From a virus (lineage: Duplodnaviria > Heunggongvirae > Uroviricota > Caudoviricetes), in the IMG/VR virus record IMGVR_UViG_2837719392_000001: DNA of 64,000 nucleotides; one strand, given 5' to 3'. A model generated the notes under the pieces. It was not told the origin of the DNA and made no database searches. It saw nothing but the letters and a program-made list of their open reading frames with translations. The stretch's first letter is position 1. Every line of letters starts with the position of its first letter. Shown here piece by piece: positions 24,177 through 54,427 of this stretch. Both the position numbers and the translations under genes were made by a program.

Positions 24177-24186
24177 CTTCTTTCGT

Positions 24187-24262: not shown

Positions 24263-24267
24263 TAAAT

Positions 24268-24346: not shown

Positions 24347-24353
24347 AAAATCT

Positions 24354-24429: not shown

Positions 24430-24432
24430 TAT

Positions 24433-24995: not shown

Positions 24996-25017
24996 AAATA
25001 CTCAAATGGGGTGATAG

Positions 25018-25604: not shown

Positions 25605-25617
25605 GGAGGTGATGTAA

Positions 25618-26340: not shown

Positions 26341-26349
26341 TAAGTAAAC

Positions 26350-26643: not shown

Positions 26644-26808
26644 CCAATGTGAATGATGGATAATTCTAGAAAAAATCCGTCAAGACTCTACTCCTATTGA
26701 GGATGGGAAAAACTCAAGCTGAAAGATGCACCAATAACCAAGTATAAGAGGAAGGCTATCAATAGAATGTCATGCTACAGACAGAGGATGTTCATTTGTA
26801 ATAAATAA

Positions 26809-26883
26809 CCGTCTGTAGTCTAATGGATAGGACACGGAGCTACGGACTCCGGGGTGGTGGTTCGATTCCATTCAGGCGGGCCA
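26809..26883 (+). tRNA. tRNA-Arg (ACG)
   Basis: Acceptor CCGTCTG/CAGGCGG, stem CGGAG/CTCCG, loop CTACGGA, discriminator G, CCA. Confidence 0.8.
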
Positions 26884-26896
26884 GTGAGGTAGAAAG

Positions 26897-27508: not shown

Positions 27509-27683
27509 ATTGAATGTAACTTATGAAGAATTAGTCAATCATGTTAAAGACTCTTTAAAAATGAAGAATGTCCCTTTAACAAAAGTGAAAGATGTAAAAG
27601 CATATTATGTTCCTAACACAAAAGTTTTGTATTACACAGCCATGTATAATGGTGAAGAAATCAAAGGAGAAAAATACTTGTAG
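27477..27683 (+). CDS. hypothetical small protein
   Basis: 68-aa ORF overlapping the HD gene's 3' end. Confidence 0.3.
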   Translation: MKMKLEIQTNELNVTYEELVNHVKDSLKMKNVPLTKVKDVKAYYVPNTKVLYYTAMYNGEEIKGEKYL

Positions 27684-28129
27684 TTTTATACTTACAGTTT
27701 TCTCTTTATGCCAGCATTGTGATGAAACCTCCTCGTGGTTGCTGGTGGGTCGCGCTAATATCATCACAAGAAACAGACATATGGCTGAAAATCCTTTCAA
27801 CGGGATAAGGCACACTTGCTTCATGGTGGGTGGAATTCCCATTATAGAAACTCGATTGAGATATAACATAAAGTGGTTCCAAGATGAACAATGCCGTTTG
27901 TAAATTGGCTGTGCGGACAAGGCTTTCCTATCCGGGTAACAAGGAAAGGGAAATCCTTCTGGTGATGCAAATGTCGAGGCACAGGCTCCATGGTAGAAAA
28001 ATCCAGAGAAGAAAAACATATGGTGATATATTCTGTAGTTGATGCCATGGTTGGAGGTCACAGAGTCCTTCTTTTATGCAATGAAAGCAAACGAGGAGCA
28101 GCTTGTTGAGGTATGTACGTCTGTTTTAT
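27684..28129 (+). ncRNA. candidate structured non-coding RNA (about 440 nt) upstream of tRNA-Gln(CTG). Identity unknown.
   Basis: Only Cys/His-rich nonsense ORFs on both strands. GC-rich relative to flanks. Adjacent to tRNA. Confidence 0.3.
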
Positions 28130-28204
28130 ATCGGGATAGCATAATGGTAATGCGCATGGCTCTGAACCATGTCAGTGGAGGTTCGAATCCTTCTCCCGAT
28201 GCCA
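28130..28204 (+). tRNA. tRNA-Gln (CTG)
   Basis: Acceptor ATCGGGA/TCCCGAT, stem CATGG/CCATG, loop CTCTGAA, discriminator G, CCA. Confidence 0.8.
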
Positions 28205-28282
28205 AAAAAATTTCAAAATTAGCAATTCATGATAAAATGATAGTGGTAATCCTAATATCAGGAGCCACTATAATAGAAGATG

Positions 28283-28446
28283 GTAGCAGGGAACTATCAT
28301 CTTCACTATTACATTAAAAAAAAGGAGAAAGATGATAGAAAACCACTATCATCTTAACTACTCTATTATAAAAGAGATGATAGAAGGTCACTATCATCTT
28401 CACTATACTATGACATTATTGATGATAGAAAACCAGTATCATCTTC
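28283..28446. repeat. tandem hairpin repeats: three 45-bp units (28331, 28376, 28421) each containing GATGATAGAAAACCACTATCATCTT (stem GATGATAG/CTATCATC), plus a degenerate copy at about 28283
   Basis: Direct inspection shows a 45-nt period. Repeat about 25 nt, inter-repeat 20 nt. Confidence 0.6.
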
Positions 28447-28450
28447 AAAT

Positions 28451-28525
28451 ATCTCCATAGTTTAGTTGGTAGAACGTCGGTCTCCAAAACCGAAAGCAGA
28501 TGTTCGAGTCGTCTTGGAGGTGCCA
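28451..28525 (+). tRNA. tRNA-Trp (CCA)
   Basis: Acceptor ATCTCCA/TGGAGGT, stem TCGGT/ACCGA, loop CTCCAAA, discriminator G, CCA. Confidence 0.8.
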
Positions 28526-28526
28526 T

Positions 28527-28600
28527 GGTTTCTTGGCAGATTGGTTATGCGCAGGACTGCAACTCCTGTCAAGCTGGTTCGATTCCAGCAGAAATCTCCA
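28527..28600 (+). tRNA. tRNA-Cys (GCA)
   Basis: Acceptor GGTTTCT/AGAAATC, stem CAGGA/TCCTG, loop CTGCAAC, U73 discriminator (Cys identity), CCA. Confidence 0.8.
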
Positions 28601-34459: not shown

Positions 34460-34960
34460 ATGACTTTAGAAGAATTAAAAAATATTAGTAATGAAATCAA
34501 GATAAGAAATAGTACAGGTACTCATATGATAAAGCATGTTTTTATTTATAAACCTTCAAAGAAAACATTTAAGACCTTTCAAAAATTAAATTTACCTTAT
34601 ATAAGTGACTTAATTCTTTCAATAGATGAGGACAAAAAATCATGCTTTCAGTTCTACTATGAGTCTCATCTAGAGAATGAGTTTCACGGTGTTATAGATA
34701 TAGAATGCAATGAAAATGGTTTTTGTTCCTATGTCTGTTTTAAAACAAGATACTTGAGAAAGAAATCTCCTAATAAGTATAGAGATTTAGGCAATTTTGA
34801 AATATATGGCGTCATAAGGGGTGGGAAGTTATTTCAATATCAGGTTTATACATCGATAGCTTTTTATAAAGATGCTGATATTTGTCCGGGTTGTGGAAAT
34901 ATTAATTATTTAAGCTATCAAGAAGCGTTAAAAAAAAGAAATAGCTATTTACATGAATAA
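34460..34960 (+). CDS. hypothetical protein, tandem paralog A
   Basis: MTLEELKNISNEIKIRN... about 40% identical to the next gene. Confidence 0.45.
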   Translation: MTLEELKNISNEIKIRNSTGTHMIKHVFIYKPSKKTFKTFQKLNLPYISDLILSIDEDKKSCFQFYYESHLENEFHGVIDIECNENGFCSYVCFKTRYLRKKSPNKYRDLGNFEIYGVIRGGKLFQYQVYTSIAFYKDADICPGCGNINYLSYQEALKKRNSYLHE

Positions 34961-35006
34961 CCCAGATTTTGGGCTAAGAAGAATGTATACACTGAAATAA
35001 AAGGAG

Positions 35007-35495
35007 TTGAAAAATATGACTTTAGAAGAATTCAAAAGCATCAGCAATGAAATTAAATTAAGAAATATGACATCTCAAAATATGATTCGACATTGCTTTA
35101 TTTATAATCCAACAGAGGAAGATTTTCAAAATCTTGTTAAGATGAAACTCATATATCATGAGCATAAGGATTCAGATTTCTTTACATTTGGAAAGTGGAA
35201 GCGTCCAAACAATGAAATGATTTCCTTTTTGAATGTAAAGATAGATATTCAATGCAATGAAGAAGGATTTGTAGCTTATACATGCTTCTTTGCTACTGAA
35301 GGAGGAAATAATAATAATCGAGGATATCTGAATTTAAAAGAAAACGAAATCATAGGAGTTATTCATAATCATCAATTTGGTTATTCAAAGTATGAGTCAC
35401 TTAATTTTTATTTAGATATGTTATGTAGAGATAGAGAAACAAGACCTGATTTTTCTATATATCAAGAAATTCAAAAGGCGACAGCTTTATGTTAG
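35007..35495 (+). CDS. hypothetical protein, tandem paralog B
   Basis: MTLEEFKSISNEIKLRN... Confidence 0.45.
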   Translation: MKNMTLEEFKSISNEIKLRNMTSQNMIRHCFIYNPTEEDFQNLVKMKLIYHEHKDSDFFTFGKWKRPNNEMISFLNVKIDIQCNEEGFVAYTCFFATEGGNNNNRGYLNLKENEIIGVIHNHQFGYSKYESLNFYLDMLCRDRETRPDFSIYQEIQKATALC

Positions 35496-35531
35496 AAATT
35501 TTATTGGGATTTTACCCAGGAGTGAAAGGAG

Positions 35532-36026
35532 TTGGAATTAAGAAATCTATTCCCTAATGAAGCTTTGGATTTTACACCATGGCTAGCAAAAAACAATTTA
35601 ATACCAGATATCATTCATACCCTCAACCTCTTTGATAATCCTATCCATCTCTATAAGACTGAAGTTTCAGTAGGAGACTATCGTTTAGATATGATTTACA
35701 AAGAATCTGGAGGGAAGGGGAGTCTGATAGTAGAAAATCAATATGGCAACAGTGACTCCCGACATCTCGGACAAATCATCGTTTATTCCAAGCTGACTCA
35801 TATACCTAAAATACTGTGGATATGTGATAAGGTGTGCTTGGAGCATCGAAGAATATCCGAGAGTTTGAATGGTATCGAGATAATCCCAGTGTCTATGGAG
35901 ATTGTTCCTAGAGCAGAGAGAAGATACTTCCTTAAATCTCACATATATGGCAACTATAACCGAGTTATCACTTATCGACTTGGGGAAGATTGTGAGGTTT
36001 TGGGAAGGATTATAAATGGAGTGTAG
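35532..36026 (+). CDS. putative PD-(D/E)xK-fold nuclease-like protein
   Basis: GDYRLDMIY...LIVENQYG arrangement resembles the D...ExK/Q restriction-endonuclease core. Low certainty. Confidence 0.35.
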   Translation: MELRNLFPNEALDFTPWLAKNNLIPDIIHTLNLFDNPIHLYKTEVSVGDYRLDMIYKESGGKGSLIVENQYGNSDSRHLGQIIVYSKLTHIPKILWICDKVCLEHRRISESLNGIEIIPVSMEIVPRAERRYFLKSHIYGNYNRVITYRLGEDCEVLGRIINGV

Positions 36027-36066
36027 ATATAAATTTCTTTGAAAAAAAGCATGAGGAGGTAGAAGA

Positions 36067-36507
36067 ATGGAAATTACAGTCAATTCAAATATTTTATTTG
36101 GAAGTATTATTGCAATTATAGTCATTATTGTTAGTCTAATAGGATTATTTTGTGATGAAGATGAAAAACATCTGACTCATATGGGATATTTTGCTTGTTT
36201 CTTTTTTGGAACAACAGCGTTAGCGTTAGTCCTTTTTGGAAACAGTGTATCATATTCTGAAAATACGGTATTTCTAACAGAAATTCCTAATACTCATGAA
36301 TATTACATCTATCATCAAGGAGATGAACAAAGTTCATTGCAGTATATGGCAGGAAATAAATTGATAACTGACAAAGTCAATGATTTAGAGATTATCTATG
36401 ATGCCAAAGATGAACCTTATATGGAAATAGAGGAAGGGAAAAGCATCATCAATCAGACAATAGAAAAAAATGTAACTATTCATATGACTATTGAGGGAAA
36501 TGAATAG
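36067..36507 (+). CDS. membrane-anchored protein, tandem paralog 1 of 4
   Basis: N-terminal TM helix. Conserved C-terminal motif PYMEIEEGKS...VTIHMTIEGNE. Confidence 0.45.
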   Translation: MEITVNSNILFGSIIAIIVIIVSLIGLFCDEDEKHLTHMGYFACFFFGTTALALVLFGNSVSYSENTVFLTEIPNTHEYYIYHQGDEQSSLQYMAGNKLITDKVNDLEIIYDAKDEPYMEIEEGKSIINQTIEKNVTIHMTIEGNE

Positions 36508-36552
36508 ACTTGAGATGCCAAAATGGCATTTCAAGATGTGAGGAGGTAATAG

Positions 36553-37014
36553 ATGGCAAATGTAATTATTATACTCGGAATAATTTTTTTAATCATTGGA
36601 TGCGTTTATGCTATATATTGTTTCATAAATGAAATGGACTTATATATGACGATATTCTTTTCTGTGTTTTGTTTGGTCATAGGTGGGATACTCATAAAAG
36701 ATGGAATAGATAGGAAGAACGCTAAAGAACAAGAACAAATGAGAAACGAGATTGTTGATATTGATGAAAGAACTGTTGTTCTCAAAGAATTACCAGAGCA
36801 ATCATCGTATTATGATGTTCAGAATTTGTCTGGTGGTACAAAGATAAAATATTTGGATGGCAAAGAATTAGTGACCTTAAATATTGATAATTATAGAGAA
36901 TTTTATGATGCCGAGAATCAACCATATATTGAAATCAAAGAGAGCAAAAATACATACGGTGACGTGCTAGAAACAAATGTTGTTATTCATTTGAAGGTGC
37001 TAGAAGATGACTAA
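36553..37014 (+). CDS. membrane-anchored protein, tandem paralog 2 of 4
   Basis: TM helix + QPYIEIKESKNTYGDVLETNVVIHLKVLEDD. Confidence 0.45.
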   Translation: MANVIIILGIIFLIIGCVYAIYCFINEMDLYMTIFFSVFCLVIGGILIKDGIDRKNAKEQEQMRNEIVDIDERTVVLKELPEQSSYYDVQNLSGGTKIKYLDGKELVTLNIDNYREFYDAENQPYIEIKESKNTYGDVLETNVVIHLKVLEDD

Positions 37015-37447
37015 TAATGAGCTTTTCCTTTATATAGGATTCGCATGTTTCTTCTTTGCGTTTATAGCTTTCTTGCAATTTCTTTGGGATGATTACGATG
37101 TTGTTATGAAGGAGTTTAGAGAAAGAGTATCCTTTTTTGCCATTTCCATAATCGTAGGATTCTTATGTTTTATTCCTGTGACGACATCTACTCAGGAAAA
37201 CACTATCAAACTCAAGCCTATACCTGAACAAGGAACTTATTACACGTATCAAGAGAGTGATAAAACAATACGATATTTAGATGGAAGTGAATTAAAGAGC
37301 ATGAAAGCAAATAGCTGTAAGGTTCTTTTTGATATTAATGATGATAAGCAGCCATATATGGTGAAAACTGATAATTACAATGTTTATGGCAATAAAATTC
37401 AGACAGAAGTAGTTGTACATTTGAATAGTTTAGAAACCCAAGAGTAA
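37007..37447 (+). CDS. membrane-anchored protein, tandem paralog 3 of 4
   Basis: TM helix + QPYMVKTDNYNVYGNKIQTEVVVHLNSLETQE. Confidence 0.45.
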   Translation: MTNNELFLYIGFACFFFAFIAFLQFLWDDYDVVMKEFRERVSFFAISIIVGFLCFIPVTTSTQENTIKLKPIPEQGTYYTYQESDKTIRYLDGSELKSMKANSCKVLFDINDDKQPYMVKTDNYNVYGNKIQTEVVVHLNSLETQE

Positions 37448-37458
37448 CGGAGGTATAT

Positions 37459-37884
37459 ATGATAATAGCATTTAGTCTTATATTGATAGGAATATTATTG
37501 TTTTGCTTAGGTTTATATTTGATGGAAGATTTTCATCCTGCATTATCATTATTATGCATTATTTTATGTTCAATTTCTGTGGCAGTAGGAGTTTTCTTTC
37601 CAATTGATAAGACAACAACAAAATATTATATTGCTGAAGAAATGAAAAATAACGAGGCTATTGCCTTACTAGAGAAAAACTGTGATGAATATACAATGAA
37701 GTATATAGAAGAAAATGAATTGAAGACAATAGATGAAGACAAGTCTGATACCAAAATTTACTTTGATGCTGAAAAGCCGTTTATCGAGGTGGAAAGAATA
37801 CAAACTCTATTCTTTAGTGGGACGTCTATGAGCTTGCATTTTCAAACACAAGAACAGATGGAAAAATTGATAGAAAATGAATAA
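37459..37884 (+). CDS. membrane-anchored protein, tandem paralog 4 of 4
   Basis: TM helix + KPFIEVERIQ... Confidence 0.45.
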   Translation: MIIAFSLILIGILLFCLGLYLMEDFHPALSLLCIILCSISVAVGVFFPIDKTTTKYYIAEEMKNNEAIALLEKNCDEYTMKYIEENELKTIDEDKSDTKIYFDAEKPFIEVERIQTLFFSGTSMSLHFQTQEQMEKLIENE

Positions 37885-40815: not shown

Positions 40816-41061
40816 ATGGGAAAAAAAAGACATCCATTAACAGTTTTAAAGTCCATTAGGGAACAAAGGGGCATCACTCAAGCCGAATTAGCTAAAGAAT
40901 TGCTTGTCACTCCACAGTATTACAGTGCTCTGGAAAGAGGATTGAATGAACTGACATATTATGATGCCTATTTGATAGCAAGAAAATTAGGAATGCCTCC
41001 AGATGCATTGTTTATGGAAGATGCTATTGATAGATTGAGAGGAGAAGGGGGAAGAAGGTAG
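40816..41061 (+). CDS. XRE-family helix-turn-helix transcriptional regulator
   Basis: LTVLKSIREQRGITQAELAKELLVTPQYYSALERG HTH_3 pattern. Confidence 0.65.
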   Translation: MGKKRHPLTVLKSIREQRGITQAELAKELLVTPQYYSALERGLNELTYYDAYLIARKLGMPPDALFMEDAIDRLRGEGGRR

Positions 41062-41141: not shown

Positions 41142-42098
41142 TTGAGAAAAATGTTTAAAATGAATTACAATGGAGGACTATTAGGGGTAATCATAGATGA
41201 AAACATAAACTTTAATTCTAGATTTTTAAAAGAAGTATCTAGGATTTTCCCTATAGTTGATAAGAATGATGAAATAACGCAAATAGTAATTACACAGTTA
41301 GGGTCTATATATATTGATAATATATCATTGACATATTTATATAATATTTGTGCCTATTTCTACAAAAAGAAAGGAATAAAATGTATGGTACAAAAAATTT
41401 TATATAACAGAATCGATAATACTATTAAATCTTATGATGCTGATAAATATAATTTTATTGAAATGAATGAAATATATGTTGGAAAAATAAATTATTATAC
41501 ATTGTATGGAGAAAATGAATTTACTCATGTTGTAAAAGGAATAACGGATTATATTTTAAGTAAAAGTATTGTACATAAGAAAAATAAAATTGAAGAATTT
41601 CTAAAAACAACAATTGGAGAAATATTTTCAAATGCAAGTTATCATAATCAGATAAAAGAATATTATTTTTTTCAGGACTCGAGTTTAATCGAAGGAGAAA
41701 TATATCTTACGGTTAATGTTATAGATTATGGGAATACTATAATTGCAAATGTAAACAAGTATTTTAAAGAAAATAATATAGTTGAAAAAACCAGAGAAAA
41801 AAGAATAGACTGGGCTATTAAGCAAGGAAATACAACTCGCATAGGTAGTGGAGGATATGGGTTGAGTACATTAATTCAATATTTAAAAAATGTAAATGGT
41901 AAACTAATAATTCTTTCTGGCAATGAAATATATGAATTGTCACCAAAAAGTGCTAATACCACAAACCTAGAAAATGCTTCATTTCCCGGCACAATTGTGT
42001 CGTTTACAGTACATCTTTATGATTTGGATAATTACTTGGAATATGATACTGATAGAAACACAATTCAAACTAGAAGTATTAATTTAAATGATATATAA
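41142..42098 (+). CDS. GHKL-type (histidine-kinase-like) ATPase domain protein
   Basis: C-terminal N-box/G-box: IGEIFSNASYHNQ...VIDYGNTI...IGSGGYGLSTL...NGKLIILSG. Confidence 0.5.
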   Translation: MRKMFKMNYNGGLLGVIIDENINFNSRFLKEVSRIFPIVDKNDEITQIVITQLGSIYIDNISLTYLYNICAYFYKKKGIKCMVQKILYNRIDNTIKSYDADKYNFIEMNEIYVGKINYYTLYGENEFTHVVKGITDYILSKSIVHKKNKIEEFLKTTIGEIFSNASYHNQIKEYYFFQDSSLIEGEIYLTVNVIDYGNTIIANVNKYFKENNIVEKTREKRIDWAIKQGNTTRIGSGGYGLSTLIQYLKNVNGKLIILSGNEIYELSPKSANTTNLENASFPGTIVSFTVHLYDLDNYLEYDTDRNTIQTRSINLNDI

Positions 42099-42122
42099 TA
42101 TAAATGATAATGGGGTGAGAAG

Positions 42123-42425
42123 ATGATTATAAAGATTAAAGATTTTGCACAAGGAGATACAGCTGTCTCTTATGAAGAAGGAAGAAAATGTTATGATTTA
42201 ATGAAGGAAGGCTTAAATAGAGGCGAAAAAATAGTTTTAGATTTTAATGATGTCAAGTATGTTATAACAGCTTTTTTGAATCCAGTTATCGGCGATGCAA
42301 TATTAAATTATGATAAAAACATTATGAATAAAATAGATATAAATAATGCTTCTACAGATATTATAGAGAAAATAAAACTTGTAAAAGAAGGTGCTTTAAT
42401 TAAAAGAGAGGATTTAGATGAGTAA
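42123..42425 (+). CDS. STAS-like (DUF4325-type) small protein, partner of the GHKL ATPase
   Basis: 100 aa. Operon context. Pattern resembles anti-sigma-antagonist-like STAS. Confidence 0.4.
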   Translation: MIIKIKDFAQGDTAVSYEEGRKCYDLMKEGLNRGEKIVLDFNDVKYVITAFLNPVIGDAILNYDKNIMNKIDINNASTDIIEKIKLVKEGALIKREDLDE

Positions 42426-42930
42426 AGTATTTTTAGATACATGTGTATGGTTTGAGTTAGTAGCTGGAGCAAATCCAACTTCTGCTCATCAGATATTACA
42501 AACTCAAAAAGCAACAGATTTATTAAATAATATATTAAGTAGTAATGATGAAATAATTACATTAGATATTCAATTAATCGAATTAACTCAAACTATAATT
42601 AAAGCAAAATTAAAAGAATGTAATAGAGATTTAAAACAAAATGGGCAATCAGGAATTGGAAATATAAAACAATTTAGAAATGACCCTACATGCCATCAAT
42701 ATTATTCTAATGCAATAAATGTGTGTTCACATGCAATCAATGATATTAGAGCATTTTCTAAAAAAATTGAAATATATCATAGTGATATTGATAAAATATT
42801 ATGTAATTTAATTAAAGCGGATATAAATGACTATATATATTATGAATTTTGTCAAAAAAATGATATAAGACTATACACATTTGACCAAGATTTTAATGAC
42901 TTTGAATATCAATACTTAAATATACTTTAG
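42418..42930 (+). CDS. PIN-domain nuclease-like protein
   Basis: N-terminal VFLDTCVWFELVAG (PIN acidic motif 1). 8-nt overlap with the upstream gene. Confidence 0.45.
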   Translation: MSKVFLDTCVWFELVAGANPTSAHQILQTQKATDLLNNILSSNDEIITLDIQLIELTQTIIKAKLKECNRDLKQNGQSGIGNIKQFRNDPTCHQYYSNAINVCSHAINDIRAFSKKIEIYHSDIDKILCNLIKADINDYIYYEFCQKNDIRLYTFDQDFNDFEYQYLNIL

Positions 42931-43104
42931 AAAGCTTATTTTAGTTTCTACGCAGAAAAAATAATATGAGCAAGTTTATGGTAAAATATAAATGTAAATA
43001 TAAACGAAACAGGACATGTCAACAGATATGTCTTTTTTTATTGCTCATATTTACGAAAATAATGGAAAGGAGCTCTTCAATAAGCAAGAGAAAGTGACAA
43101 AAAA

Positions 43105-44490
43105 ATGAAAAAAGAACAATTCAAATCAGTGGAGATAGGACAATCTCGAAATAAAGCAATGATTATAGGATATCTGCCAGAATTTGATAAGATTTCAATT
43201 TATAACCATGTACAGGAAATTAAATTAAAAGCAACAGATGTTGAATATCAGTTTAATTTTAATCCTAGATATGTTCATATGAAAGAAAGTATCTATAGTG
43301 GGAGTGAAGAAGAACAAATCTGCAAAAAATCCAACAATAATCTCAAAAGATTATCTCAAATCATTAATAATACTAATAAAGACTTTAAAACGAATCATCA
43401 ATTTATAGTCTTTCATTACTCATTAATTGATTCTATTAATAAATGGTTAGACGATTTATGGGAATCAACCAAATATATGAAATATGGAAATTTGAAGAAT
43501 GATGTTGGGTTATTGCATGACGTTTTTCATAATACTGAAAAAGAATGGGTTGTGATTGATGGTAATAGTTACTTTTCATCAATTCATCAAAGTTATTTAG
43601 CAAGGAAACAATTAAAGAATGTCCCAGATGAAATTAAGGAATGGTCAAAGTATTATAATGTCAGAAAATCATTAGAAAAAGCTTATACAAAAGATATGCT
43701 GTCAACGCAAAGTGATGAATATGACATACAGATGATTCAATTGATTGCTTTGGTTATGGAAAAGAATATGAGTTCATGGAATCAAAGTGATAAAATAGAT
43801 TTTATGAAGATTTTGTATAGATTATTATTTGCCATTACTTATAGAAATAAGGATAAATGGATAAATGCTAATGATATGTTTGTTTATATACAAGCAATAA
43901 GATATCTTACATTGCCATTTGATAAGACAACAACATTTAAACAGACAAATAGAATGAATTATATTCTTTTGACTGCATTATATGAAAAGGATAAGAATCT
44001 AGAAAAAACAACTTTTAATATCAAGATGTTTAGAAACCTTATTGAGGGATTAATTTCAAAGAATGAACGAAAAGAGAAATTAGATTATGTCTTAGATGGT
44101 TTAAATGAAGTGTATAATGCGATGATTTACTATCAGAACGAATCTCTTCATATTTTAAAGGATATTGACGGACAATCTGCACGAGACAGATTGACAAAGA
44201 TTGATTCTTTATGTGCAAATGGAGTTATGAAATATACTTCAAAGTGTAGAGACAAGATTATTAATGATGATATTGATATTGTTCAGATGCGTAAGAAATT
44301 AAAACAAATGGCTGATAATATGATAAAAGTTTATCAAAATTATCTTAATAATAATGTAACAAAATTATTGCACAATAATCCCAAATTAGCGAGCAACATT
44401 TCAAATATTTATAAGCTTGGACACTTTGAAGACAACCTAACAGAAAGAGATTTTTTCTTATTGGTTATGGATGCTTTGAAATGTTCTTGA
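43105..44490 (+). CDS. hypothetical protein (very AT-rich gene)
   Basis: 461-aa ORF. Confidence 0.4.
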   Translation: MKKEQFKSVEIGQSRNKAMIIGYLPEFDKISIYNHVQEIKLKATDVEYQFNFNPRYVHMKESIYSGSEEEQICKKSNNNLKRLSQIINNTNKDFKTNHQFIVFHYSLIDSINKWLDDLWESTKYMKYGNLKNDVGLLHDVFHNTEKEWVVIDGNSYFSSIHQSYLARKQLKNVPDEIKEWSKYYNVRKSLEKAYTKDMLSTQSDEYDIQMIQLIALVMEKNMSSWNQSDKIDFMKILYRLLFAITYRNKDKWINANDMFVYIQAIRYLTLPFDKTTTFKQTNRMNYILLTALYEKDKNLEKTTFNIKMFRNLIEGLISKNERKEKLDYVLDGLNEVYNAMIYYQNESLHILKDIDGQSARDRLTKIDSLCANGVMKYTSKCRDKIINDDIDIVQMRKKLKQMADNMIKVYQNYLNNNVTKLLHNNPKLASNISNIYKLGHFEDNLTERDFFLLVMDALKCS

Positions 44491-44504
44491 AAGGAAGTGA
44501 TTAT

Positions 44505-45062
44505 ATGAATTTAAGAAAGAAAATAGAGGAAACGAAGAATTGTATTGAAAAAGATAATTATGCAAATAGAAATTATGAGATTTGCTGCAGTTATCTAGAA
44601 TCTATAAAACTCAGAATTCAAGATAAAGAAAGAGGTGAAGATAACCATTACACTGTTATGATGTGCCCACCTAAAACCCCAAACATTGATTCATACCTTA
44701 TATGTTCCAAACAACATAATGATTATGCTATTCAGATAAAGCAAGGAAAGAATAAGGATAAGGAATCAAAAAATAGAATGTGGCATAACAAATACAAAAA
44801 TATTATGAATACTGATAATTATCTCTATCTTACATATGAAAAAGAATCAGATAGAATAAGCTATAATAGCCAATGGCATGTTCAAGAAGATAATACAGTA
44901 GAAACAATTCAATATATCGAAAAAAGAAAGCAAGATAATCCAAAAGAATATAAGTTTCTGAAAAAGATGATGGAAAATCTTGCTTTTTCTAATGCAAATG
45001 AAGATGAGATGGATTGGATATTATTAAATAGATTCTATGCATATCTATTTCAAAATAACTAA
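44505..45062 (+). CDS. hypothetical protein
   Basis: Start moved to MNLRKK with RBS GGAAGTGA. ORF track start 44481 overlaps the upstream gene. Confidence 0.4.
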   Translation: MNLRKKIEETKNCIEKDNYANRNYEICCSYLESIKLRIQDKERGEDNHYTVMMCPPKTPNIDSYLICSKQHNDYAIQIKQGKNKDKESKNRMWHNKYKNIMNTDNYLYLTYEKESDRISYNSQWHVQEDNTVETIQYIEKRKQDNPKEYKFLKKMMENLAFSNANEDEMDWILLNRFYAYLFQNN

Positions 45063-45196: not shown

Positions 45197-47014
45197 ATGG
45201 CAAAAACATTAAAAAAACCAAAGTATGATGCATTAACATTTGCATATTCAAAAAAAGAAGCAGGGAAAATGATTCCTAATACAACTTTTACAGCAGGAGG
45301 AGAAGATGAAAGATTCTATAGTATTAAAAACAAGACAATCTTGCCATCTACTGGAAAAGTAGCATCTATATTATCTGATAAGATTGCAAAAGCAATTTTA
45401 GAATCTCAGTTAACAAATGATGAAACGATGATAGGATGGGGTAAAAATGGAACTGAGCAATTTATTTATGGAGAATTGCCTGGTGGTTCTGCAAGTGATA
45501 TAGAAAAATTCATTATTAACTTAGATGAAAAGAAAATCTATGCAACGAATATCTATTCACATCTTTTATATAAAGTTATCCTAGCATATGACTTATTGCA
45601 ATTTGTCTTAGCTGGTGAAAAAGCAACAGATGAACAAAGAGAGGCTTATGAGATTTTAGCAGGTATTAACTATTTACCTACTGAACCTTTTGATGAAACA
45701 TCTATTTTAGTAGATTCGGCTGAAAAAGAAAGTTTTGTCACTTTATGTGATAGTATTTTACAAACAGCATCAATGTTTAATGGTTATGAGTTTGATACTG
45801 AAATACCTAATAAAGATAAGGACTTTGATATCTATGCTAATAAGATTAAATATAATCTTTTGCCATTAGTTGCTATGCATAATAAGGTTGATGATATGTC
45901 TATTGATACTGGAGAAGAAGATGAAGATGGAAATCCTATCTATATTCCGGAAATCAAACCTCTCAAAGTCAAAAGAAAGAAAAAAGGAGCGAAATCTAAA
46001 GCAAACTCATCTATTCCGTATAAAGATAGAGATTATACGTTAATGACTGATGAAGAAGCTGAAGATTTACCTGAAGAATTAAAGATTCAAAGAGATGCAT
46101 GTATTGAACTTTATGAAAGAAATAAAGAGTTTATGGATGATAATGATGAGCTTTGGGAATGTATCTTAAGCTTCTATCATGGAAACATCTGGAAAATGGG
46201 ATTCTTTGGACCATCTGCTTCTGGGAAAACAACGTTTGTCAGAATGATGGCAGGAGCATTAAAATTACCTTTCGCACTGGTAACAGGTAATAGAGATACA
46301 GAAACAGCACAGTTGTTTGGACATATGACAATCAAAGATGGAGATATGGTCTTCGTTGATGGCCCATTGACTCAAATTGCGAGATACGGTGGTATCTTCT
46401 TATTTGATGAAAGAAATATGGTCAACGCTGGTGTCGTGTCAGCGACAAACAACTTGCTTGATGATACTCGTATGTGTACAATTCCTCAAACTGGAGAAAC
46501 TATCAGAGCTCATAAAAACTTCAGATATTGTGAAGCTTTCAATATTGGATATGAAGGGACAAAAGAAGACAACTTGTCACATATTTCACGTATTGATGAA
46601 TTCCATAAATTGGCACATACAGATGAAACAGAAGCTAAAATCGTCGTTGCGAATTCTGGAATTGAATTAGGAGTAGCCAAAACGATGATTCAAGTCAAAA
46701 ACAATATCACAAAAGAAATCATAGAAGACGGGGATGAAACTACTCAAAGAGTAGATTTACGTTCTTGTATTTCATGGGCTAAAAAGACAATGGATTTGGA
46801 AGGTAATGCATTAAGAGCAGCACTTTCTACAATCTTAACACCTCTATCAAAAGAAGTTGATACAGTTTTAAGCAGTAATAATATCAAGAACTTCTCTGCT
46901 ACAGGGGACCCTGTCGTAGATTATGCTTCTAATGAGATTAGAAAATATTTCGATGAAAGTGTTAAAAAGAAAGTCATCAAGAAAGAATATGAATTTGAAA
47001 AATATGAACTTTAA
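45197..47014 (+). CDS. MoxR/CbbQ-like AAA+ ATPase (AAA_5) with about 300-aa N-terminal extension
   Basis: Walker A FFGPSASGKTTFV, Walker B IFLFDE, sensor residues. Confidence 0.65.
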   Translation: MAKTLKKPKYDALTFAYSKKEAGKMIPNTTFTAGGEDERFYSIKNKTILPSTGKVASILSDKIAKAILESQLTNDETMIGWGKNGTEQFIYGELPGGSASDIEKFIINLDEKKIYATNIYSHLLYKVILAYDLLQFVLAGEKATDEQREAYEILAGINYLPTEPFDETSILVDSAEKESFVTLCDSILQTASMFNGYEFDTEIPNKDKDFDIYANKIKYNLLPLVAMHNKVDDMSIDTGEEDEDGNPIYIPEIKPLKVKRKKKGAKSKANSSIPYKDRDYTLMTDEEAEDLPEELKIQRDACIELYERNKEFMDDNDELWECILSFYHGNIWKMGFFGPSASGKTTFVRMMAGALKLPFALVTGNRDTETAQLFGHMTIKDGDMVFVDGPLTQIARYGGIFLFDERNMVNAGVVSATNNLLDDTRMCTIPQTGETIRAHKNFRYCEAFNIGYEGTKEDNLSHISRIDEFHKLAHTDETEAKIVVANSGIELGVAKTMIQVKNNITKEIIEDGDETTQRVDLRSCISWAKKTMDLEGNALRAALSTILTPLSKEVDTVLSSNNIKNFSATGDPVVDYASNEIRKYFDESVKKKVIKKEYEFEKYEL

Positions 47015-47066: not shown

Positions 47067-49334
47067 ATGAAAAGAAAAACAGGAAAATTAATGAAAAAGA
47101 AGGTTAAGAAGATTTTAACTGGCATTGAGTTGCTTACAAGTAAAGGTTATAGAGCCAGCTATAAAAGTATGGCTGAAACTTATTGTAAACAGCCTCTTCA
47201 ATTTAAAATGCTTTTAAATGCAGGAAGTTTTACAAGTGTTAATGATAAAGGTCAGACATTGATGAATATTGACTTGAATATGTTTAGAGATGATAAGTTT
47301 TCAACATCTCACTATCATCTGTTTGCTAAAGGCGTGATTTTACATGAATCCGGTCATGTTTTATATAGTGATTTTGATGTGATTAGAAAAAACGCAGATA
47401 ATGTGAATCAGTTAAGAAATCAAATCAAGGCAATCGGAGAGGCATACTATCAAGAATCTGACCCTATTCTCAAACAGGACTGTGAAACAAAATTGTATGA
47501 TGCCATTTTAGAATTTACTAAGGCAAGTAATCTACCAGATGTCCTAAACTCTTTTGAAGATGCTGCAGTAGAGAGAGTCATGTCAGAAATGGGTAAAGAT
47601 GAAAATGGAAGCATTGCTTTTACAAGAAATTATATTGTAGAAAAAGATACACAACATAAATTAGATGGCATCAATAACGATGCGATTCCATTGGATTCAG
47701 ACAACTGGAATCAAGCCACTTTGGATGGAATTATCACTGAAGCCAGATTAATGGCTACAGCAGGATATAGAATGGCTATTGATATGACTATCATATCGCA
47801 TACTTTTGAGCCTGCAGAAATCAATCAGATTAAGGATATCTGTCAATATGTGAGATTTATGTCCAATACAACAGAAGATAGAAATATTTCCAGTGAAGTC
47901 TTCTTGGATATGTGTCAACCAATTATCGAGAAGATAGCGCAAGACTTAACAAACGCTTATATCAGAGATATTGATTATGCTGAAGACCAGTTGAACAACA
48001 TGCAACAAAACGCAAATGCATCTACTCAATCAACAGGTGGTCCAGGAAGCCAGCCAACTCAAGCAGGAGGAAATGGATTGCCTGGGCAAAAAGGAGGAAG
48101 TCAACCTCAGCCTACATCAAATAAGAATAGTTTACCTCTGCCTGATAGCCTAAAGAAACAATTACAAAACAAAGCCAATCAAACAGGGCAGCTATTAAGT
48201 GTTGGTGGACAGGGTTCAAACCAAGGAGACGCTTCACATGATGGACAGGGAGCAGATGGCGCAGGCACAGGAAATGAAAATAATAATGCTACATCAGGAG
48301 GAGGTTCAGGTGATGGGCCAAATGGAACATCAATCCCTAATGCGACAAAAACAAGTGAAGAGTTAAGTGATGAAAGTGTTACTGATATGACAGAGGCATT
48401 AAATAATGCAAAAAAGACTTTTCAGCGAAATGAAGATATGGTTCAAGATTCATTAATTAAAAGCGACCATAATATCAGAGCAGCCGAAGGACGCTGTCAT
48501 AAAGGTATTGGAATCAGCATAACAGACATCAATGATGTTTTGGATTTATCAGATTCTCGTGAAGGAAAAGAAGCCCAAAAAACAATTCAAAAAGATAATT
48601 TGAACATCTATGTTAATGAATTATCTAAAAAAATTAAAAAAGTTCTTATGAGAAAAGGCATGGATGATACATCAAGAGGACGTTATGAAGGAGATATTGA
48701 TTTCTCAAATCTTCATAGAATCAAAACAGACTGCCAGTTATTTAAAAAGGATATCGAAGGTAAGACAAACAAAATAAGATTTGCTATTCTTGTAGACGAA
48801 TCTGGAAGCATGTATGGTACAGAACTGTATAATGCCATATTAGGATGTTGGATGATTGCAAAAGCTGCACAAAAACTCAAAATCCCATTTGCTGTTTATG
48901 GCCATGATGAAGATGATGAGTTTGAACTCAGAAAGTACATCTCATATGAAAAATGTAAGAAAAATACAGCATTGAACTCATTATTTAAAATGAGTTCTAG
49001 AGGATGCAACAGAGATGGCCTGGCAATTTTCCATGTTTGTAGAGAATTAATTAAACATGCACAAGATGACGAGGATTTGTATTTTATCATCTTGAGTGAT
49101 GGACAACCAAATGGACACAATTATGGTGGACAACCGGCAATCGATGACATGAGAGAAGTTATCAATACTTTCAAAAAGCATTACAACGTCCATTCAATTG
49201 GAATTGGGATTGGAGATTTTAATTTTGAAAATATTGGCGTCATCTATGATAATCATGTCTGCGTAAAAGACGTGAAAGAATTGCCTAATGAGATGTTCAA
49301 GATTTTTAAACAGATTTTAAAAGTAGAAAGATAG
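47067..49334 (+). CDS. von Willebrand factor A (VWA) domain protein, CobT-like partner of the AAA+ ATPase
   Basis: C-terminal MIDAS motif ILVDESGSM. Central G/Q/S/P-rich low-complexity linker. Confidence 0.65.
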   Translation: MKRKTGKLMKKKVKKILTGIELLTSKGYRASYKSMAETYCKQPLQFKMLLNAGSFTSVNDKGQTLMNIDLNMFRDDKFSTSHYHLFAKGVILHESGHVLYSDFDVIRKNADNVNQLRNQIKAIGEAYYQESDPILKQDCETKLYDAILEFTKASNLPDVLNSFEDAAVERVMSEMGKDENGSIAFTRNYIVEKDTQHKLDGINNDAIPLDSDNWNQATLDGIITEARLMATAGYRMAIDMTIISHTFEPAEINQIKDICQYVRFMSNTTEDRNISSEVFLDMCQPIIEKIAQDLTNAYIRDIDYAEDQLNNMQQNANASTQSTGGPGSQPTQAGGNGLPGQKGGSQPQPTSNKNSLPLPDSLKKQLQNKANQTGQLLSVGGQGSNQGDASHDGQGADGAGTGNENNNATSGGGSGDGPNGTSIPNATKTSEELSDESVTDMTEALNNAKKTFQRNEDMVQDSLIKSDHNIRAAEGRCHKGIGISITDINDVLDLSDSREGKEAQKTIQKDNLNIYVNELSKKIKKVLMRKGMDDTSRGRYEGDIDFSNLHRIKTDCQLFKKDIEGKTNKIRFAILVDESGSMYGTELYNAILGCWMIAKAAQKLKIPFAVYGHDEDDEFELRKYISYEKCKKNTALNSLFKMSSRGCNRDGLAIFHVCRELIKHAQDDEDLYFIILSDGQPNGHNYGGQPAIDDMREVINTFKKHYNVHSIGIGIGDFNFENIGVIYDNHVCVKDVKELPNEMFKIFKQILKVER

Positions 49335-49467: not shown

Positions 49468-50001
49468 ATGTCAGACAGATTAGATGGACAATATATCGTA
49501 TTGGACATTGAATTTACGAAATCTAAAGAAAGGACAGAAATTATTGAAATTGGAGCTCAAAGGCTTTTATCATACAACTATGGAACTCGGGTAAAAGAAA
49601 GCGACTCTTTCAATAAACTTGTCAAACCCCTTCATTTACCAAAACAATCTCTTTTGGATTTGCTAGGAATGAAGAAGGAAGACTTACAAGAAGCACAAAA
49701 CTTTGCTAATGTCTTTCAAGAATTCTTAGAATGGGTAGGCGATGAAAATACTTTTTATGTTGTATGGGGAACAAGAGACCCTAAGATTATAGAAAAGGAG
49801 TGCAAAAATTATCATTTAGTTAAAGAATTTCAAAGTATGGATTTCATCGATATTCAATCATATACGATGTTACAGGACAAAATAAAAAACTTGCCATCAT
49901 TAGCAAGCATGGTTAAGAAGTATGGAGAATTTGAAGGGAAACAACATAACGCATTAAACGACGCTGTCAATACAAGTAAAATTCTAAAGAATATTATTTA
50001 A
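49468..50001 (+). CDS. DEDDh 3'-5' exonuclease (DnaQ/epsilon-like)
   Basis: Exo I VLDIEFT, Exo II VVWGTRD, Exo III HNALNDAVNT. Confidence 0.7.
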   Translation: MSDRLDGQYIVLDIEFTKSKERTEIIEIGAQRLLSYNYGTRVKESDSFNKLVKPLHLPKQSLLDLLGMKKEDLQEAQNFANVFQEFLEWVGDENTFYVVWGTRDPKIIEKECKNYHLVKEFQSMDFIDIQSYTMLQDKIKNLPSLASMVKKYGEFEGKQHNALNDAVNTSKILKNII

Positions 50002-50327: not shown

Positions 50328-51050
50328 ATGAATTATATTTTTTTATTACCATTTGCTTTTGGTGGAAATCCTGCATGTGAATCAGGCCCTAGAGCTGCAT
50401 ATAATATAATAAAGGATAACTTCTCTACTCAGAAATACTCTGTTTTTATTATTGAACAAAAAATCAATGAAAGTCCGGAAAATTATTTATTAAAAGTAGA
50501 AGATATTATTGATAAAGAGGTTATAGATAATTCAAAATGTTGTGTAATTGGTGGAAATCATCTTTCTATATTACCTGTTTATAAACATATAATTAAATCT
50601 AACTTGTTATCTAATTTTTTAATATTAGATGCTCATCGAGATTTTTATCCTCAAAACGATTTATCCCATTCTACTTTTTTAAAATACATATCTCATGATA
50701 ATAATTTTTTGTTGGTGGGTTGTAGAGATAAAAATAGACATCATTCATTTATTAGAAATACAAAAGTGATTTTTAAAGAAGATTATAAAGAGTTATTACA
50801 AATAGATATGAATAAAATAAATATGATAGATATAGATTTAGATGTAATAGATGAAAGTGAATTTGCCAGTTATTCAGATTATATCCCAAATGGGCTTTCG
50901 CTAAATCAAATTCGTGAAATAATTTCATTATCTAAAAACAGGGAGGCACAGTTTTTATCAATTTCAGAATATAATCCTATTTTTGATTATGGACAAAAGG
51001 ATTTACTAAAAATAATTGATTTAATTAATCTATTTTTTGATGATTATTAA
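50328..51050 (+). CDS. arginase/agmatinase-family (ureohydrolase) enzyme, short form. Candidate peptide arginase.
   Basis: Ureohydrolase motifs GGNHLS, LDAHRD, DIDLDVIDES. N-terminal GGNPACESGPRAAY resembles the arginase N-terminal loop. Confidence 0.55.
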   Translation: MNYIFLLPFAFGGNPACESGPRAAYNIIKDNFSTQKYSVFIIEQKINESPENYLLKVEDIIDKEVIDNSKCCVIGGNHLSILPVYKHIIKSNLLSNFLILDAHRDFYPQNDLSHSTFLKYISHDNNFLLVGCRDKNRHHSFIRNTKVIFKEDYKELLQIDMNKINMIDIDLDVIDESEFASYSDYIPNGLSLNQIREIISLSKNREAQFLSISEYNPIFDYGQKDLLKIIDLINLFFDDY

Positions 51051-51069
51051 TAATAGGAGGTAAAATGAT

Positions 51070-52140
51070 ATGTTAATGCAGAGTTTTATCATACCCATAA
51101 TTAAAGTAACTGATTCATGTAACTTTAATTGTGAATTTTGTTATTATTCACAAAAAAAATTACATTCAGAATTAATGACACTCGAATTATGTAAGAAAAT
51201 AATAAAAGAAACATTTGAATATAATGCTAAGATGGGAAATAAAAGAATGAGAATAATTTTTCATGGTGGAGAGCCTTTACTTCAACCCATAACCTTTTAT
51301 AAAGAGTTATATAATTTTGAAAATGAGTTAAAACATAACTATCAAATGGATATTTTACATTCAATTCAAACGAATGGTTACAATATTAATAATCAATGGA
51401 TTGAATTATTTCAAATAATGAATATGGATGTTGGAATTAGTATTGATGGCCCTGATTTTCTTAATTTCCATTATAATGAATTAGGTCAGAAAAAGTGCAC
51501 TGATAAAGTTTTAGAGAATATACAATTATTAAATCAGAATAACATCTCTTATGGAATAATTAGTGTAATTACAAATTCTCATCTTAATTATGCAAAAGAA
51601 ATGTATGATTTCTGTATTAAAAATGATATACATAATCTAAGTCTTAATTATTGTTATAATGATGACTCAGATGATAGTGTTGATACGAAAGAATTAGTTT
51701 TTTTCCTAAAAGAACTTTTTGATTTATATTTTAATGGTGATTATGAGTTAAATATTAGAGAATTTAATGAGTCTATTGCAAAAATACTAGGGTATTGTAG
51801 TGATACATGTGCAACATGTAGTAGGGAAAATTGTGGGCAGTATATGTCTTTTGATTCCTATGGAAATGTATTCTTTTGTGATAATGCATATGATAAAAAT
51901 AATGCAATTGGAAATTTATATAATTCTTCATTATATGATATTATTGACTCCTCAAGATATTTAACAGAAATAATTAAATCAAGACGAAATTATGAAGAAA
52001 ACTGTAAAAATTGCTCACTATCTTTTGTGTGTGGAAGTGGATGTTATAGATATGATAACAACCTTGGAGTTAATTATTTTTGTCCAACCATGAAAGCGAT
52101 TAACAATTATATTATAAATAAAATAAATAATAATGATTAA
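51070..52140 (+). CDS. radical SAM enzyme with C-terminal SPASM domain (peptide-modifying maturase type)
   Basis: CNFNCEFC (CxxxCxxC). C-terminal Cys cluster CATCSRENCGQ...FFCDN...CKNCSLSFVCGSGCY. Confidence 0.7.
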   Translation: MLMQSFIIPIIKVTDSCNFNCEFCYYSQKKLHSELMTLELCKKIIKETFEYNAKMGNKRMRIIFHGGEPLLQPITFYKELYNFENELKHNYQMDILHSIQTNGYNINNQWIELFQIMNMDVGISIDGPDFLNFHYNELGQKKCTDKVLENIQLLNQNNISYGIISVITNSHLNYAKEMYDFCIKNDIHNLSLNYCYNDDSDDSVDTKELVFFLKELFDLYFNGDYELNIREFNESIAKILGYCSDTCATCSRENCGQYMSFDSYGNVFFCDNAYDKNNAIGNLYNSSLYDIIDSSRYLTEIIKSRRNYEENCKNCSLSFVCGSGCYRYDNNLGVNYFCPTMKAINNYIINKINNND

Positions 52141-52657: not shown

Positions 52658-54298
52658 TTAGGCAGCCTCTTTTACATTTATATATAATTTTTCGATATCC
52701 TGTGCTAATAAGGTTTCTTTTTCTAGAAGACTTTTAGCAATGGTATCTAAAAGTGATTGATTTTCCTTGATAATATGAGTTGCTTCTTCATGGCATTGTT
52801 TTAAAAGGGTATTCACTTCCTCATCAAGTTTCTTTTGAGTTTCTTGAGAGGCTTGGTTATCAACTTTCATCAATCCCATTTTCCCCATCCCAAAAGAGCC
52901 AACATATCTTCTGGCAAGATTCGTAGCTTTTTCAATGTCATTGGATGCACCAGCCGTTATATCATCGAAGAAAAGTTCCTCTGCGACACGACCTGATAAT
53001 AACCCAACGATTTCATCATGAATAGAGCCTTTTGTAGGGAAAAATGTTTCTTCTTTTGGCATCATGAGGTTGTATCCTCCAGCTTCTCCACGAGGAATGA
53101 TTGTGACTTTTTCTACCTTCTTTGCATTTTCCAGGACAAGACCAGCAACGGCATGACCTGCTTCATGATAAGCGACAATTTTTCTTTCTTTATCAGTATA
53201 CTGATGTGTTGTTTTTGATGGTCCCATCAAGACTCTATCCACAGCTTCATCAATAAGGGAATCATTGATAGCATTTTGATGGAATCTGACAGCTAAAAGT
53301 GCCGCTTCATTCATAAGTGCAGCTAATTCAGCATTAGAAAATCCCTGTGTTTTCTTAGCAATACTTTCAAAATTCAAATTATCAATCTTTTTATTCTTTG
53401 CGTGCAACTTAAGGACATCAATGCGTTCTTCATATGTTGGTAAACCGACATAAATTTGTCTATCGAATCGTCCAGGACGAAGCAATGCAGAATCTAACAT
53501 ATCCTTACGATTTGTGGCAGCAATGACAATGTAGTTATTATCTTTGGTAAATCCATCCATCTCAACCAATAACTGATTAAGCGTATGTTCACTTTCTTTG
53601 TTATAACCGTTACTGCTTCTTTTTCCTCCCATTGCATCAATCTCATCAATGAAGATAATGCATGGTTCCTTGCTTTCTCTTGCAGAGTCAAATAGCTTTC
53701 TCACTCTTTCAGCTCCAACTCCAACAAACTTTTCAACGAATTCAGAACCTGAAGTATATAAAAACTTCACACCTGCTTCACCAGCTACAGCTCTGGCAAG
53801 TAATGTTTTCCCTGTGCCTGGAGGGCCTTCAAATAGGATTCCATGAGGAATTGTTGCTCCCATACTATGATATTTTGAGGGCTGCTTTAAAAAGTCGATG
53901 ATTTCGTATAATTCATCCTTTACTTCTTTAAATCCGGCGATGTCGTTTAAAGTGATATCGCTATGAGAAGGAGTAAATTCATTGCCAACATTTTTTTCAG
54001 TCATCTTTTCATTAATCATATCTTTAATTTTATTACTGTCAGCAGAAGAATTGACTGCTGTTTTCTTAGTTTCCTGTAAATAAGCAGTTGCAATCAGTTT
54101 GGCTTTATCCTTATATTCATTTCTTTCAATCTCAATAGTCTTCATTTTATAATAATATAAGCCTATGATGACAAAACTGGCAATGCCAATTAATGTCATC
54201 ATAATAAAACCAATCATAGAAATAGATGTAAAAAAATATATAAATAACAGTGCTAGAATATAAATGACACCGTAAATTTTAATGTATGTGTTTTTCAT
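52658..54298 (-). CDS. FtsH-like AAA+ zinc metalloprotease (short form)
   Basis: N-terminal TM, Walker [19 protein letters not shown] zinc motif. Start trimmed to the Met with AAGAGG RBS. Confidence 0.75.
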
Positions 54299-54427
54299 AT
54301 CATAACCTCTTTTCCCTGCTAATAGCATTTGTCTTTAGCTTTTTCACAAGTCTATTTTACCATAAATCCTAAAAAATATCAAGAAAAATTTAGGGAAATA
54401 ACAAAAAAGAGAATTTTTCATTCTCTT

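Follow-up and report, generated by a model that had tools for sequence, protein, structure and literature searches.

A putative divergent VapKSC toxin-antitoxin operon in a tRNA-rich viral sequence

Layout and conservation of the operon

In a 64,000-nucleotide stretch of DNA from a Caudoviricetes virus (IMG/VR record IMGVR_UViG_2837719392_000001; this whole stretch is called the window here), we found four genes on the plus strand between 40.8 and 43.05 kb, namely, an XRE-family helix-turn-helix (HTH) gene and open reading frames (ORFs) encoding 318, 100, and 170 amino acids. The last three very probably make up a vapKSC operon, that is, a three-component toxin-antitoxin and anti-phage system in which a kinase gates release of the toxin. 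All four ORFs lie on the strand and at the positions given by an earlier reading of the letters alone (the original prediction). The first gene of the operon, vapK, encodes a predicted serine/threonine kinase with STAS and GHKL domains. The mechanically called ORF for this kinase begins at a TTG at 41142 and encodes the 318 amino acids originally described; that ORF exists, but the most likely start is the ATG at 41151, because the near-identical metagenomic homologues P0001 to P0004 are 315 amino acids long, so that vapK would span 41151..42098 and encode 315 amino acids. After a gap of 24 nucleotides (nt) that contains a good Shine-Dalgarno sequence, vapS (42123..42425) encodes a STAS-like (DUF4325) putative antitoxin of 100 amino acids, and vapC (42418..42930), encoding a putative PIN-domain toxin of 170 amino acids, overlaps it by 8 nt (42418-42425), which agrees with the overlap reported earlier. 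A terminator-like hairpin on the same strand at 43011..43041, with a 10-bp stem and a 4-nt loop followed by TTTTTAT, closes the operon. The genes for the kinase, the STAS protein, and the PIN protein follow one another in this order, on one strand and with tight spacing, as they do in VapKSC operons. The operon region is AT-rich, with a GC content of 24 to 26% compared to about 30 to 35% for the window.

The XRE-family HTH gene (40816..41061, plus strand; HTH_3, E = 6.7e-15) ends 89 nt before vapK, with no terminator between the two. An ATG at 40816, with a Shine-Dalgarno sequence before it, is its likely start, and no convincing operator palindrome was detected upstream of the operon.

We used the window proteins as tblastn queries to compare 25 related loci. 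Sixteen loci, from Clostridia and Erysipelotrichales, came from a scan of species-representative genomes. The three genes were colinear, in unrelated surroundings, in 22 of the 25 loci, while one locus was cut by a contig end and two were decayed. Identity to the window proteins across these loci was 50 to 64% for VapS, 30 to 42% for VapK, and 34 to 47% for VapC. Since the genes stay colinear in so many loci at only 30 to 47% identity for the kinase and the toxin, the arrangement, judged from these alignments, is far beyond chance. The same arrangement accompanies three diverged kinase homologues (33 to 40% identity), each of which is followed by a DUF4325 gene of about 100 codons and then a PIN gene of about 170 codons, again in unrelated surroundings. 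Among L001 to L009, relatives of the operon directly follow an integrase fragment and a type II CRISPR-Cas locus, made up of Cas9-Cas1-Cas2 and a 277-amino-acid gene, and others lie at the edge of prophage-like insertions, with a serine recombinase beside cotJA/cotJB. In L009, a type III restriction-modification methylase and helicase are also nearby.

Upstream of vapK, a homologue of the XRE gene was found in one locus only, L010 ("Ca. Massilimicrobiota merdigallinarum"), the twin of the window locus at 98% identity; elsewhere the upstream genes are unrelated and include integrase, recombinase, cotJB, flagellin, and other genes. The regulator that the original prediction saw ahead of the operon is therefore present, but it is not a conserved part of it. 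For this reason we rejected the XRE gene as a component of the system and regard it, from this comparison, as an incidental neighbor and a possible local regulator.

The named genome loci that carry the trio come from gut-associated Clostridia and Erysipelotrichales, many of them metagenome-assembled genomes (MAGs), and nearly all of the 90%-identity clusters of VapK and VapC homologues come from metagenomes. When the DNA of the region was searched against phage and plasmid collections, there was no match, and a tblastn search with VapK gave one weak phage match and no plasmid match. Two loci contain decayed copies of the operon. In an Erysipelotrichaceae MAG (L021:4001-5486), vapK is fragmented and vapS is missing, and in a Coprobacillaceae chromosome (CP139560.1; L025:4001-5556), all three genes are broken into shifted pieces. 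The vapKSC module can evidently be lost through pseudogenization.

Homology of the three proteins to Escherichia VapKSC

The vapKSC system was described by Chambers, Rani, Min, Villa, and Corbett (bioRxiv, February 2026; EMBO J, June 2026; PMC13373217). In the published system, VapK is a STAS plus GHKL kinase, VapS consists of a STAS domain and a brief C-terminal stretch, and VapC is a PIN protein. In Escherichia sp. E4736, VapC toxicity requires D28 and is neutralized by VapS, and neutralization is abolished by deletion of VapS residues 94 to 116, a region that reaches the VapC active site and is needed for inhibition, or by the phospho-mimic S48E (PMC13373217). The crystal structure of the VapS2-VapC2 complex (PDB 9Z7O) has four Mg ligands in VapC (D151, D154, D173, and D175). 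The Escherichia operon gives about 2-log protection against phage Bas42, dependent on VapC D28, VapS S48, and VapK F54 (PMC13373217). Among the 289 published operons, which include several from Firmicutes, 36% lie within 10 kb of other defense genes (PMC13373217). None of six genus and taxon names taken from our related loci occurs in the supplementary files of that paper. The coupling of PIN and DUF4325 proteins had been listed in 2017 as subfamily PIN.4 (Matelska et al., PMC5499597). The statement in the original prediction that this gene combination is not a named system is thus superseded. On the alignments described below, the VapK, VapS, and VapC proteins of the window are demonstrably homologous to their Escherichia counterparts, and the operon is a divergent and apparently intact member of a family that is already known and named. 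This assignment draws on gene order, homology of all three proteins, their folds, and the conserved kinase motifs, phospho-acceptor, and PIN acidic residues.

The most direct sequence link is through VapS. The 100-amino-acid protein matches DUF4325 ("STAS-like") with an E value of 3.7e-10, as had been proposed for it, and contains no other domain. When all PDB sequences were searched at E ≤ 10, its sole match was 9z7o_A, annotated as Escherichia VapS (E = 6.5e-6), with residues 3 to 99 aligned on residues 3 to 99; hhalign gave a probability of 96.4% for the same pair. T49 of the window VapS aligns with the Escherichia phospho-acceptor S48 (SEQRES numbering from -17 to 116), so that the STAS domain has the Ser/Thr conserved at this position. 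T49 is invariant in clade members, within the invariant block YVITAFLNPxIGD, and is the predicted phospho-acceptor of the window protein. Beyond the DUF4325 match there are about 20 more residues. The C-terminal tail, VKEGALIKREDLDE, is mostly invariant across the clade; among four clade members aligned, the pattern VK-GAL-KR-D-DE is invariant and includes the acidic end ..KRxDxDE. Across the related loci, conservation of VapS exceeds that of both the kinase and the toxin. An antitoxin that is more conserved than its toxin is the reverse of the usual type II antitoxin pattern.

The window kinase alone had no Pfam match, and PDB sequence searches with either the kinase or its family profile gave no meaningful match, so the GHKL assignment needed Pfam scans of individual family members together with a structure model. 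The family consists of proteins of about 310 amino acids, in 102 clusters at 90% identity. Pfam scans of 28 members found HATPase_c in 15 and HATPase_c_2, the SpoIIAB/RsbW-type model, in 10. The motifs noted in the original prediction, numbered here on the 318-amino-acid protein, are present: an N-box NASYHN (N164..H168), DYGNTI (D195 and G197), and GSGGYGLS (235 to 242). In a family alignment of 28 sequences, these motifs coincide with the columns that do not vary, namely, E160, N164, H168, D195-x-G197, GNTTR-GSGGYGL, and G283-T284, so the ATP-binding and catalytic motifs (N-box E/N/H, G1 DxG, and G2 GxGL) are intact. The reported lack of a histidine kinase dimerization domain also stood, with no HisKA match found. 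In the structure model, the protein begins directly with a STAS beta-strand, and this STAS domain is followed by a SpoIIAB-like GHKL domain, with SpoIIAB as the best structural match; this model predicts that VapK joins a STAS domain at the N terminus to a GHKL kinase of the SpoIIAB/RsbW type. Over its whole length, the window kinase also matches the phage protein family phrog_3364 (E = 1.4e-18).

For comparison with Escherichia VapK, we took residues 1 to 286 of that protein from the authors' AlphaFold 3 file. BLASTP with the window kinase found the GHKL half only (E = 9e-11), and the N-terminal STAS half is the least conserved part of the kinase. The family profile aligned to Escherichia VapK over its full length and both domains in hhalign (98.9%, E = 1.9e-17). 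Invariants common to the family and Escherichia VapK include E..N..H, DxG, a distinctive W-A-x3-G-N-T-T, GxGL, and F-x-G-T.

For the toxin, the evidence is a chain of homologues. The 170-amino-acid protein matches Pfam PIN at 21.4 bits (E = 4.2e-4), below the gathering score of 23.6, and NCBIfam VapC at an E value of 1.7e-4, also below the cutoff. A profile search collected 149 VapC homologues (clusters at 90% identity) of about 165 to 173 amino acids, most of which carry PF01850 and some of which are named VapC or PIN by NCBI. An AlphaFold 2 model of the window VapC had a predicted local distance difference test (pLDDT) score of 94.1 and a PIN fold, and its top Foldseek matches were PIN/VapC structures (2fe1 [PAE0151], E = 2.8e-4; 7vwo; and 4chg), with Mycobacterium tuberculosis VapCs and PAE2754 among the matches. 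The homologues and the model thus support the PIN assignment of the original prediction in spite of the subthreshold Pfam score.

Direct similarity between the window VapC and the 203-amino-acid Escherichia VapC is marginal. The Escherichia protein was not reached by PDB sequence searches with the window VapC alone or with two VapC profiles, hhalign of the VapC profile against the single Escherichia sequence gave no link, and Foldseek with the model against a PDB library (to 2026-04-08) returned no 9Z7O chain. A VapC-family profile searched against 1.84 billion representatives retrieved 192 proteins. Beyond the clade itself, the nearest relatives among these are Escherichia-VapC-like proteins of 175 to 205 amino acids, with an N-terminal extension of about 18 residues. 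In the reverse direction, phmmer with Escherichia VapC matched 62 of the 150 listed proteins from the profile search (best E = 6.6e-14), and because these 62 intermediates bridge both proteins, we link the window VapC to Escherichia VapC. Besides the initiator Met, the only invariants of the joint alignment are D7, W11, E55, D135, D138, D156, and D158, which align with Escherichia D28, W32, E74, D151, D154, D173, and D175, respectively. These positions include the catalytic Asp and all four Mg ligands of the Escherichia nuclease, and D7, E55, D135, D138, D156, and D158 are the predicted catalytic and metal-binding residues of the window VapC.

The window operon therefore shares with Escherichia vapKSC the gene order, a STAS plus GHKL kinase without an HTH, a Ser/Thr at the same position of VapS, and the same acidic residues of VapC. 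It differs in that identity is only about 20% for VapK (29% in the GHKL half), about 30% for VapS, and about 18% for VapC, and in its location on what looks like a mobile element of a low-GC (Erysipelotrichales-like) Firmicute. The window VapC also lacks the N-terminal extension of about 21 residues and the C-terminal tail of the Escherichia protein, and in the 100-residue window VapS, the essential C-terminal helix of the 116-residue Escherichia protein is mostly missing or shortened. The finding opens no new category; a defense and toxin-antitoxin system that was described only in 2026 gains a branch that is well supported and very divergent. At about 20% identity, the core that persists comprises the motifs of the kinase, the Thr/Ser phospho-acceptor, and the metal ligands of the PIN domain. 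The tail of VapS, the extensions of VapC, and the putative contact residue for single-stranded DNA (ssDNA) vary, which is useful for the design of mutants and profile models. None of the three proteins has a model in PADLOC-DB v2.0.0 (2023), and pipelines that use it would for this reason miss the system.

Proposed mechanism and competing explanations

For the window operon, we infer toxicity, antitoxin action, phosphorylation, an ssDNA trigger, and phage protection from the Escherichia homologue. In the resting state, the small STAS/DUF4325 protein VapS would bind VapC directly, as a VapS2-VapC2 complex, and keep the PIN RNase silent. An infection or DNA damage signal would activate VapK; in the published model, the trigger in Escherichia would be ssDNA that arises when DNA is damaged or a phage infects and that binds between the STAS domain and the GHKL domain. 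Active VapK would phosphorylate VapS at T49, a position that lies buried where VapS and VapC meet in 9Z7O, and phospho-VapS would no longer bind VapC. The freed VapC would then cut cellular RNA, probably tRNA or rRNA, so that growth arrests and the infection is aborted. The operon is not accompanied by a gene for a PP2C phosphatase, as would fit an abortive switch that works one way. The operon may also aid persistence of the large mobile replicon that carries it or exclude competing phages. The original prediction had proposed that GHKL and STAS proteins with anti-sigma/antagonist logic control the PIN nuclease in abortive infection or addiction, and this core reading is supported; such logic has been shown for the homologous Escherichia operon (PMC13373217) and would by homology operate here.

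Several observations weigh against a full transfer of this mechanism. Activation of VapK by ssDNA rests in the published work on an AlphaFold 3 model and one mutant (PMC13373217), in which F54, an aromatic residue of the STAS domain that corresponds to CapK W68, is proposed to stack on ssDNA. The equivalent of F54 could not be confidently placed in the window kinase: hhalign gives Y57, in a column that is not conserved, while MAFFT aligns this region of VapK differently, and the neighboring column is Y or F in most family members and I or L in the window's subclade. The window VapS ends 16 residues earlier than its Escherichia homologue, at the equivalent of residue 100, so only 7 residues lie beyond position 93, and most of the helix formed by residues 94 to 116 has no counterpart. 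Finally, among the products tested within about 10 kb on each side of the operon, there was no specific PADLOC defense match. With a highly conserved, acidic-tailed VapS that is 16 residues shorter, a compact VapC, and a kinase aromatic that is not clearly conserved, it is conceivable, though improbable, that the gut Firmicute clade is a mechanistic variant of VapKSC, with another way of blocking the PIN site or another trigger, or one that huge-phage-like or plasmid-like elements rather than the host use to exclude rivals.

Two explanations keep the VapKSC machine and change its input or its beneficiary. It is unlikely, in our assessment, that the kinase senses something other than ssDNA, such as a phage protein or another nucleic acid, and that the short-tailed VapS inhibits VapC through a different contact. 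The uncertain F54 position, with an aliphatic best-conserved neighboring column in the window's subclade, and the weak conservation of the STAS half, which BLASTP does not reach, would fit a different trigger, as the short VapS with its invariant acidic tail would fit a different contact; the profile alignment to VapK, however, spans both domains of an identical architecture, and there is no positive pointer to another ligand. It is possible, if rather doubtful, that the operon serves its carrier replicon as an addiction module (postsegregational killing) or an exclusion tool instead of serving host immunity. The window has plasmid-like or huge-phage-like features (RepA_N, ParA/ParB, pieces of its own DNA polymerase, a topoisomerase, and the 26 tRNA genes), the trio stands at prophage ends beside serine recombinases in other loci, VapK matches a phage protein family, and the nearby gene products tested lack a specific PADLOC defense match. 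A host defense role is favored by the protection that the Escherichia homologue gives against Bas42, by the proximity of more than a third of the published operons to defense genes, and by a relative that adjoins a type II CRISPR-Cas locus, and a folded STAS antitoxin that is inactivated by phosphorylation fits poorly with addiction, whose usual logic is that of a labile antitoxin. One role does not exclude the other, and with carriage both at the ends of prophages and on a large, tRNA-rich replicon, one may ask whom the operon serves. What interest remains comes from the highly conserved VapS with its short tail, the uncertain trigger, and this unusual carrier element.

Other explanations would replace the toxin-antitoxin machine with a regulatory circuit. 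CapK/CapS, the closest characterized regulators, consist of an ssDNA-activated HTH-STAS-GHKL kinase that phosphorylates a repressor made of STAS and winged HTH (wHTH) domains, and they stand upstream of CBASS, Bub, and Thoeris operons (PMC13373217). The window operon shares with them a STAS plus GHKL kinase, a STAS partner as the presumed substrate, and the same signaling logic and presumed trigger, and its kinase fold is that of SpoIIAB/RsbW, with the anti-sigma factor SpoIIAB as the best structural match. One could thus propose a transcription switch of the CapK/CapS or SpoIIAB/SpoIIAA type, acting on the genes directly downstream (encoding 461 and 193 amino acids) or on a sigma factor, with the PIN protein as a passenger, but we consider this very improbable. 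Unlike CapK, the window kinase has no N-terminal HTH; unlike CapS, the window VapS (DUF4325 only) has no C-terminal wHTH, and at E ≤ 10 it had no match to the CapS PDB entries (9Z71 to 9Z73), its PDB match being VapS. Moreover, the CapK/CapS output is transcriptional derepression and not toxin release, whereas here the terminator separates vapC from the downstream genes, which are conserved only in the twin locus, and vapC accompanies the other two genes in nearly all loci compared. A CapKS-type regulator was rejected on the missing HTH and wHTH and on the terminator. An anti-sigma partner switch was likewise rejected, since in spite of the matching kinase fold, scans of the operon proteins and of flanking proteins detected neither a sigma factor nor a PP2C domain; in contrast to the SpoIIAB/SpoIIAA and RsbW/RsbV pairs, there is neither a sigma factor target nor a PP2C phosphatase to reset the switch, the kinase has its own fused STAS domain, and the sequestered target would be a nuclease, with the STAS protein and not the kinase holding it.

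A canonical two-component histidine kinase, which the original prediction had named along with a lack of co-occurrence as the outcome that would speak against its proposal, has next to no likelihood. It was rejected on architecture: there was no HisKA/DHp domain, no transmembrane sensor, and no Response_reg match or response regulator nearby, a STAS domain occupies the N terminus, and the protein matches best a SpoIIAB/RsbW-type Ser kinase. The wide co-occurrence of the trio, from the gene neighborhood comparison that the original prediction had called for, likewise agrees with that proposal. A plain VapBC type II toxin-antitoxin pair, finally, would account for the VapC-type PIN toxin, for a neutralizing protein encoded just upstream, and for translational coupling of the two genes. 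We rejected it as well, since only the PIN half of its definition applies: the kinase is always present, the antitoxin has a STAS fold in place of an RHH, AbrB, or PHD DNA-binding protein, and release would come through phosphorylation by a dedicated kinase and not through proteolysis of the antitoxin. A vapKSC operon thus remains the very probable identity of the three genes.

The carrier element and other genes of the window

From its gene content, the carrier appears to be a large, tRNA-rich mobile element, plasmid-like or huge-phage-like. Its replicon-like gene set includes a RecJ-like DHH protein (1285-3099), a RecD2 helicase (3708-5954), ParB (6771-7820), ParA (7774-8736), and a RepA_N initiator with an HTH (19456-21078). 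An array of 26 tRNA genes on the plus strand (22273-28600) represents a nearly full set; it also has a tRNA-Phe with anticodon AAA and a tRNA with anticodon TTA, which would read the UAA stop codon (24433-24505; called by ARAGORN only). Rfam tRNA matches of about 130 nt at 22523-22658 and 23552-23680, which ARAGORN did not call, may contain introns. The array suggests a huge phage or a megaplasmid, possibly with stop codon suppression.

Between the tRNA array and the operon, seven similar-sized ORFs of 141 to 166 amino acids follow one another on the plus strand (34460-37884). Three translations from this run (36553-37884) have hydrophobic N termini and resemble paralogous small membrane proteins; the one ORF of the run that was scanned (34460-34960) had no Pfam match. 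Directly after the vapC terminator lie the two overlapping plus-strand genes mentioned above, encoding 461 and 193 amino acids (43105-45062); neither protein had a match above threshold in any library scanned, and the genes are conserved only in the 98%-identical L010.

Further downstream we found genes for a CobS-like AAA_5 protein (45197-47014), a CobT/VWA-like protein (47067-49334), a DEDDh exonuclease (49468-50001), and, on the plus strand, an arginase-family protein followed by a radical SAM/SPASM enzyme (50328-52140). The radical SAM core of the SPASM enzyme matches the PADLOC pVip (viperin) models (E = 1e-16). We did not accept viperin for this protein, as the match covers the generic radical SAM core only, a SPASM domain is present, and the similarity is probably generic. 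Other genes encode an FtsH-like protease (52658-54328), a TopB-like topoisomerase with Toprim_Crpt (55778-57856), and, on the minus strand, two ORFs that match different parts of the phage DNA polymerase profile phrog_405, at profile positions 677 to 1129 (58065-59522; E = 2e-89) and 43 to 443 (62636-63994; E = 3e-92). About 3 kb with other ORFs separates these two, as if the polymerase gene were split or interrupted; insertion of mobile genes or an intein or intron arrangement may be the cause.

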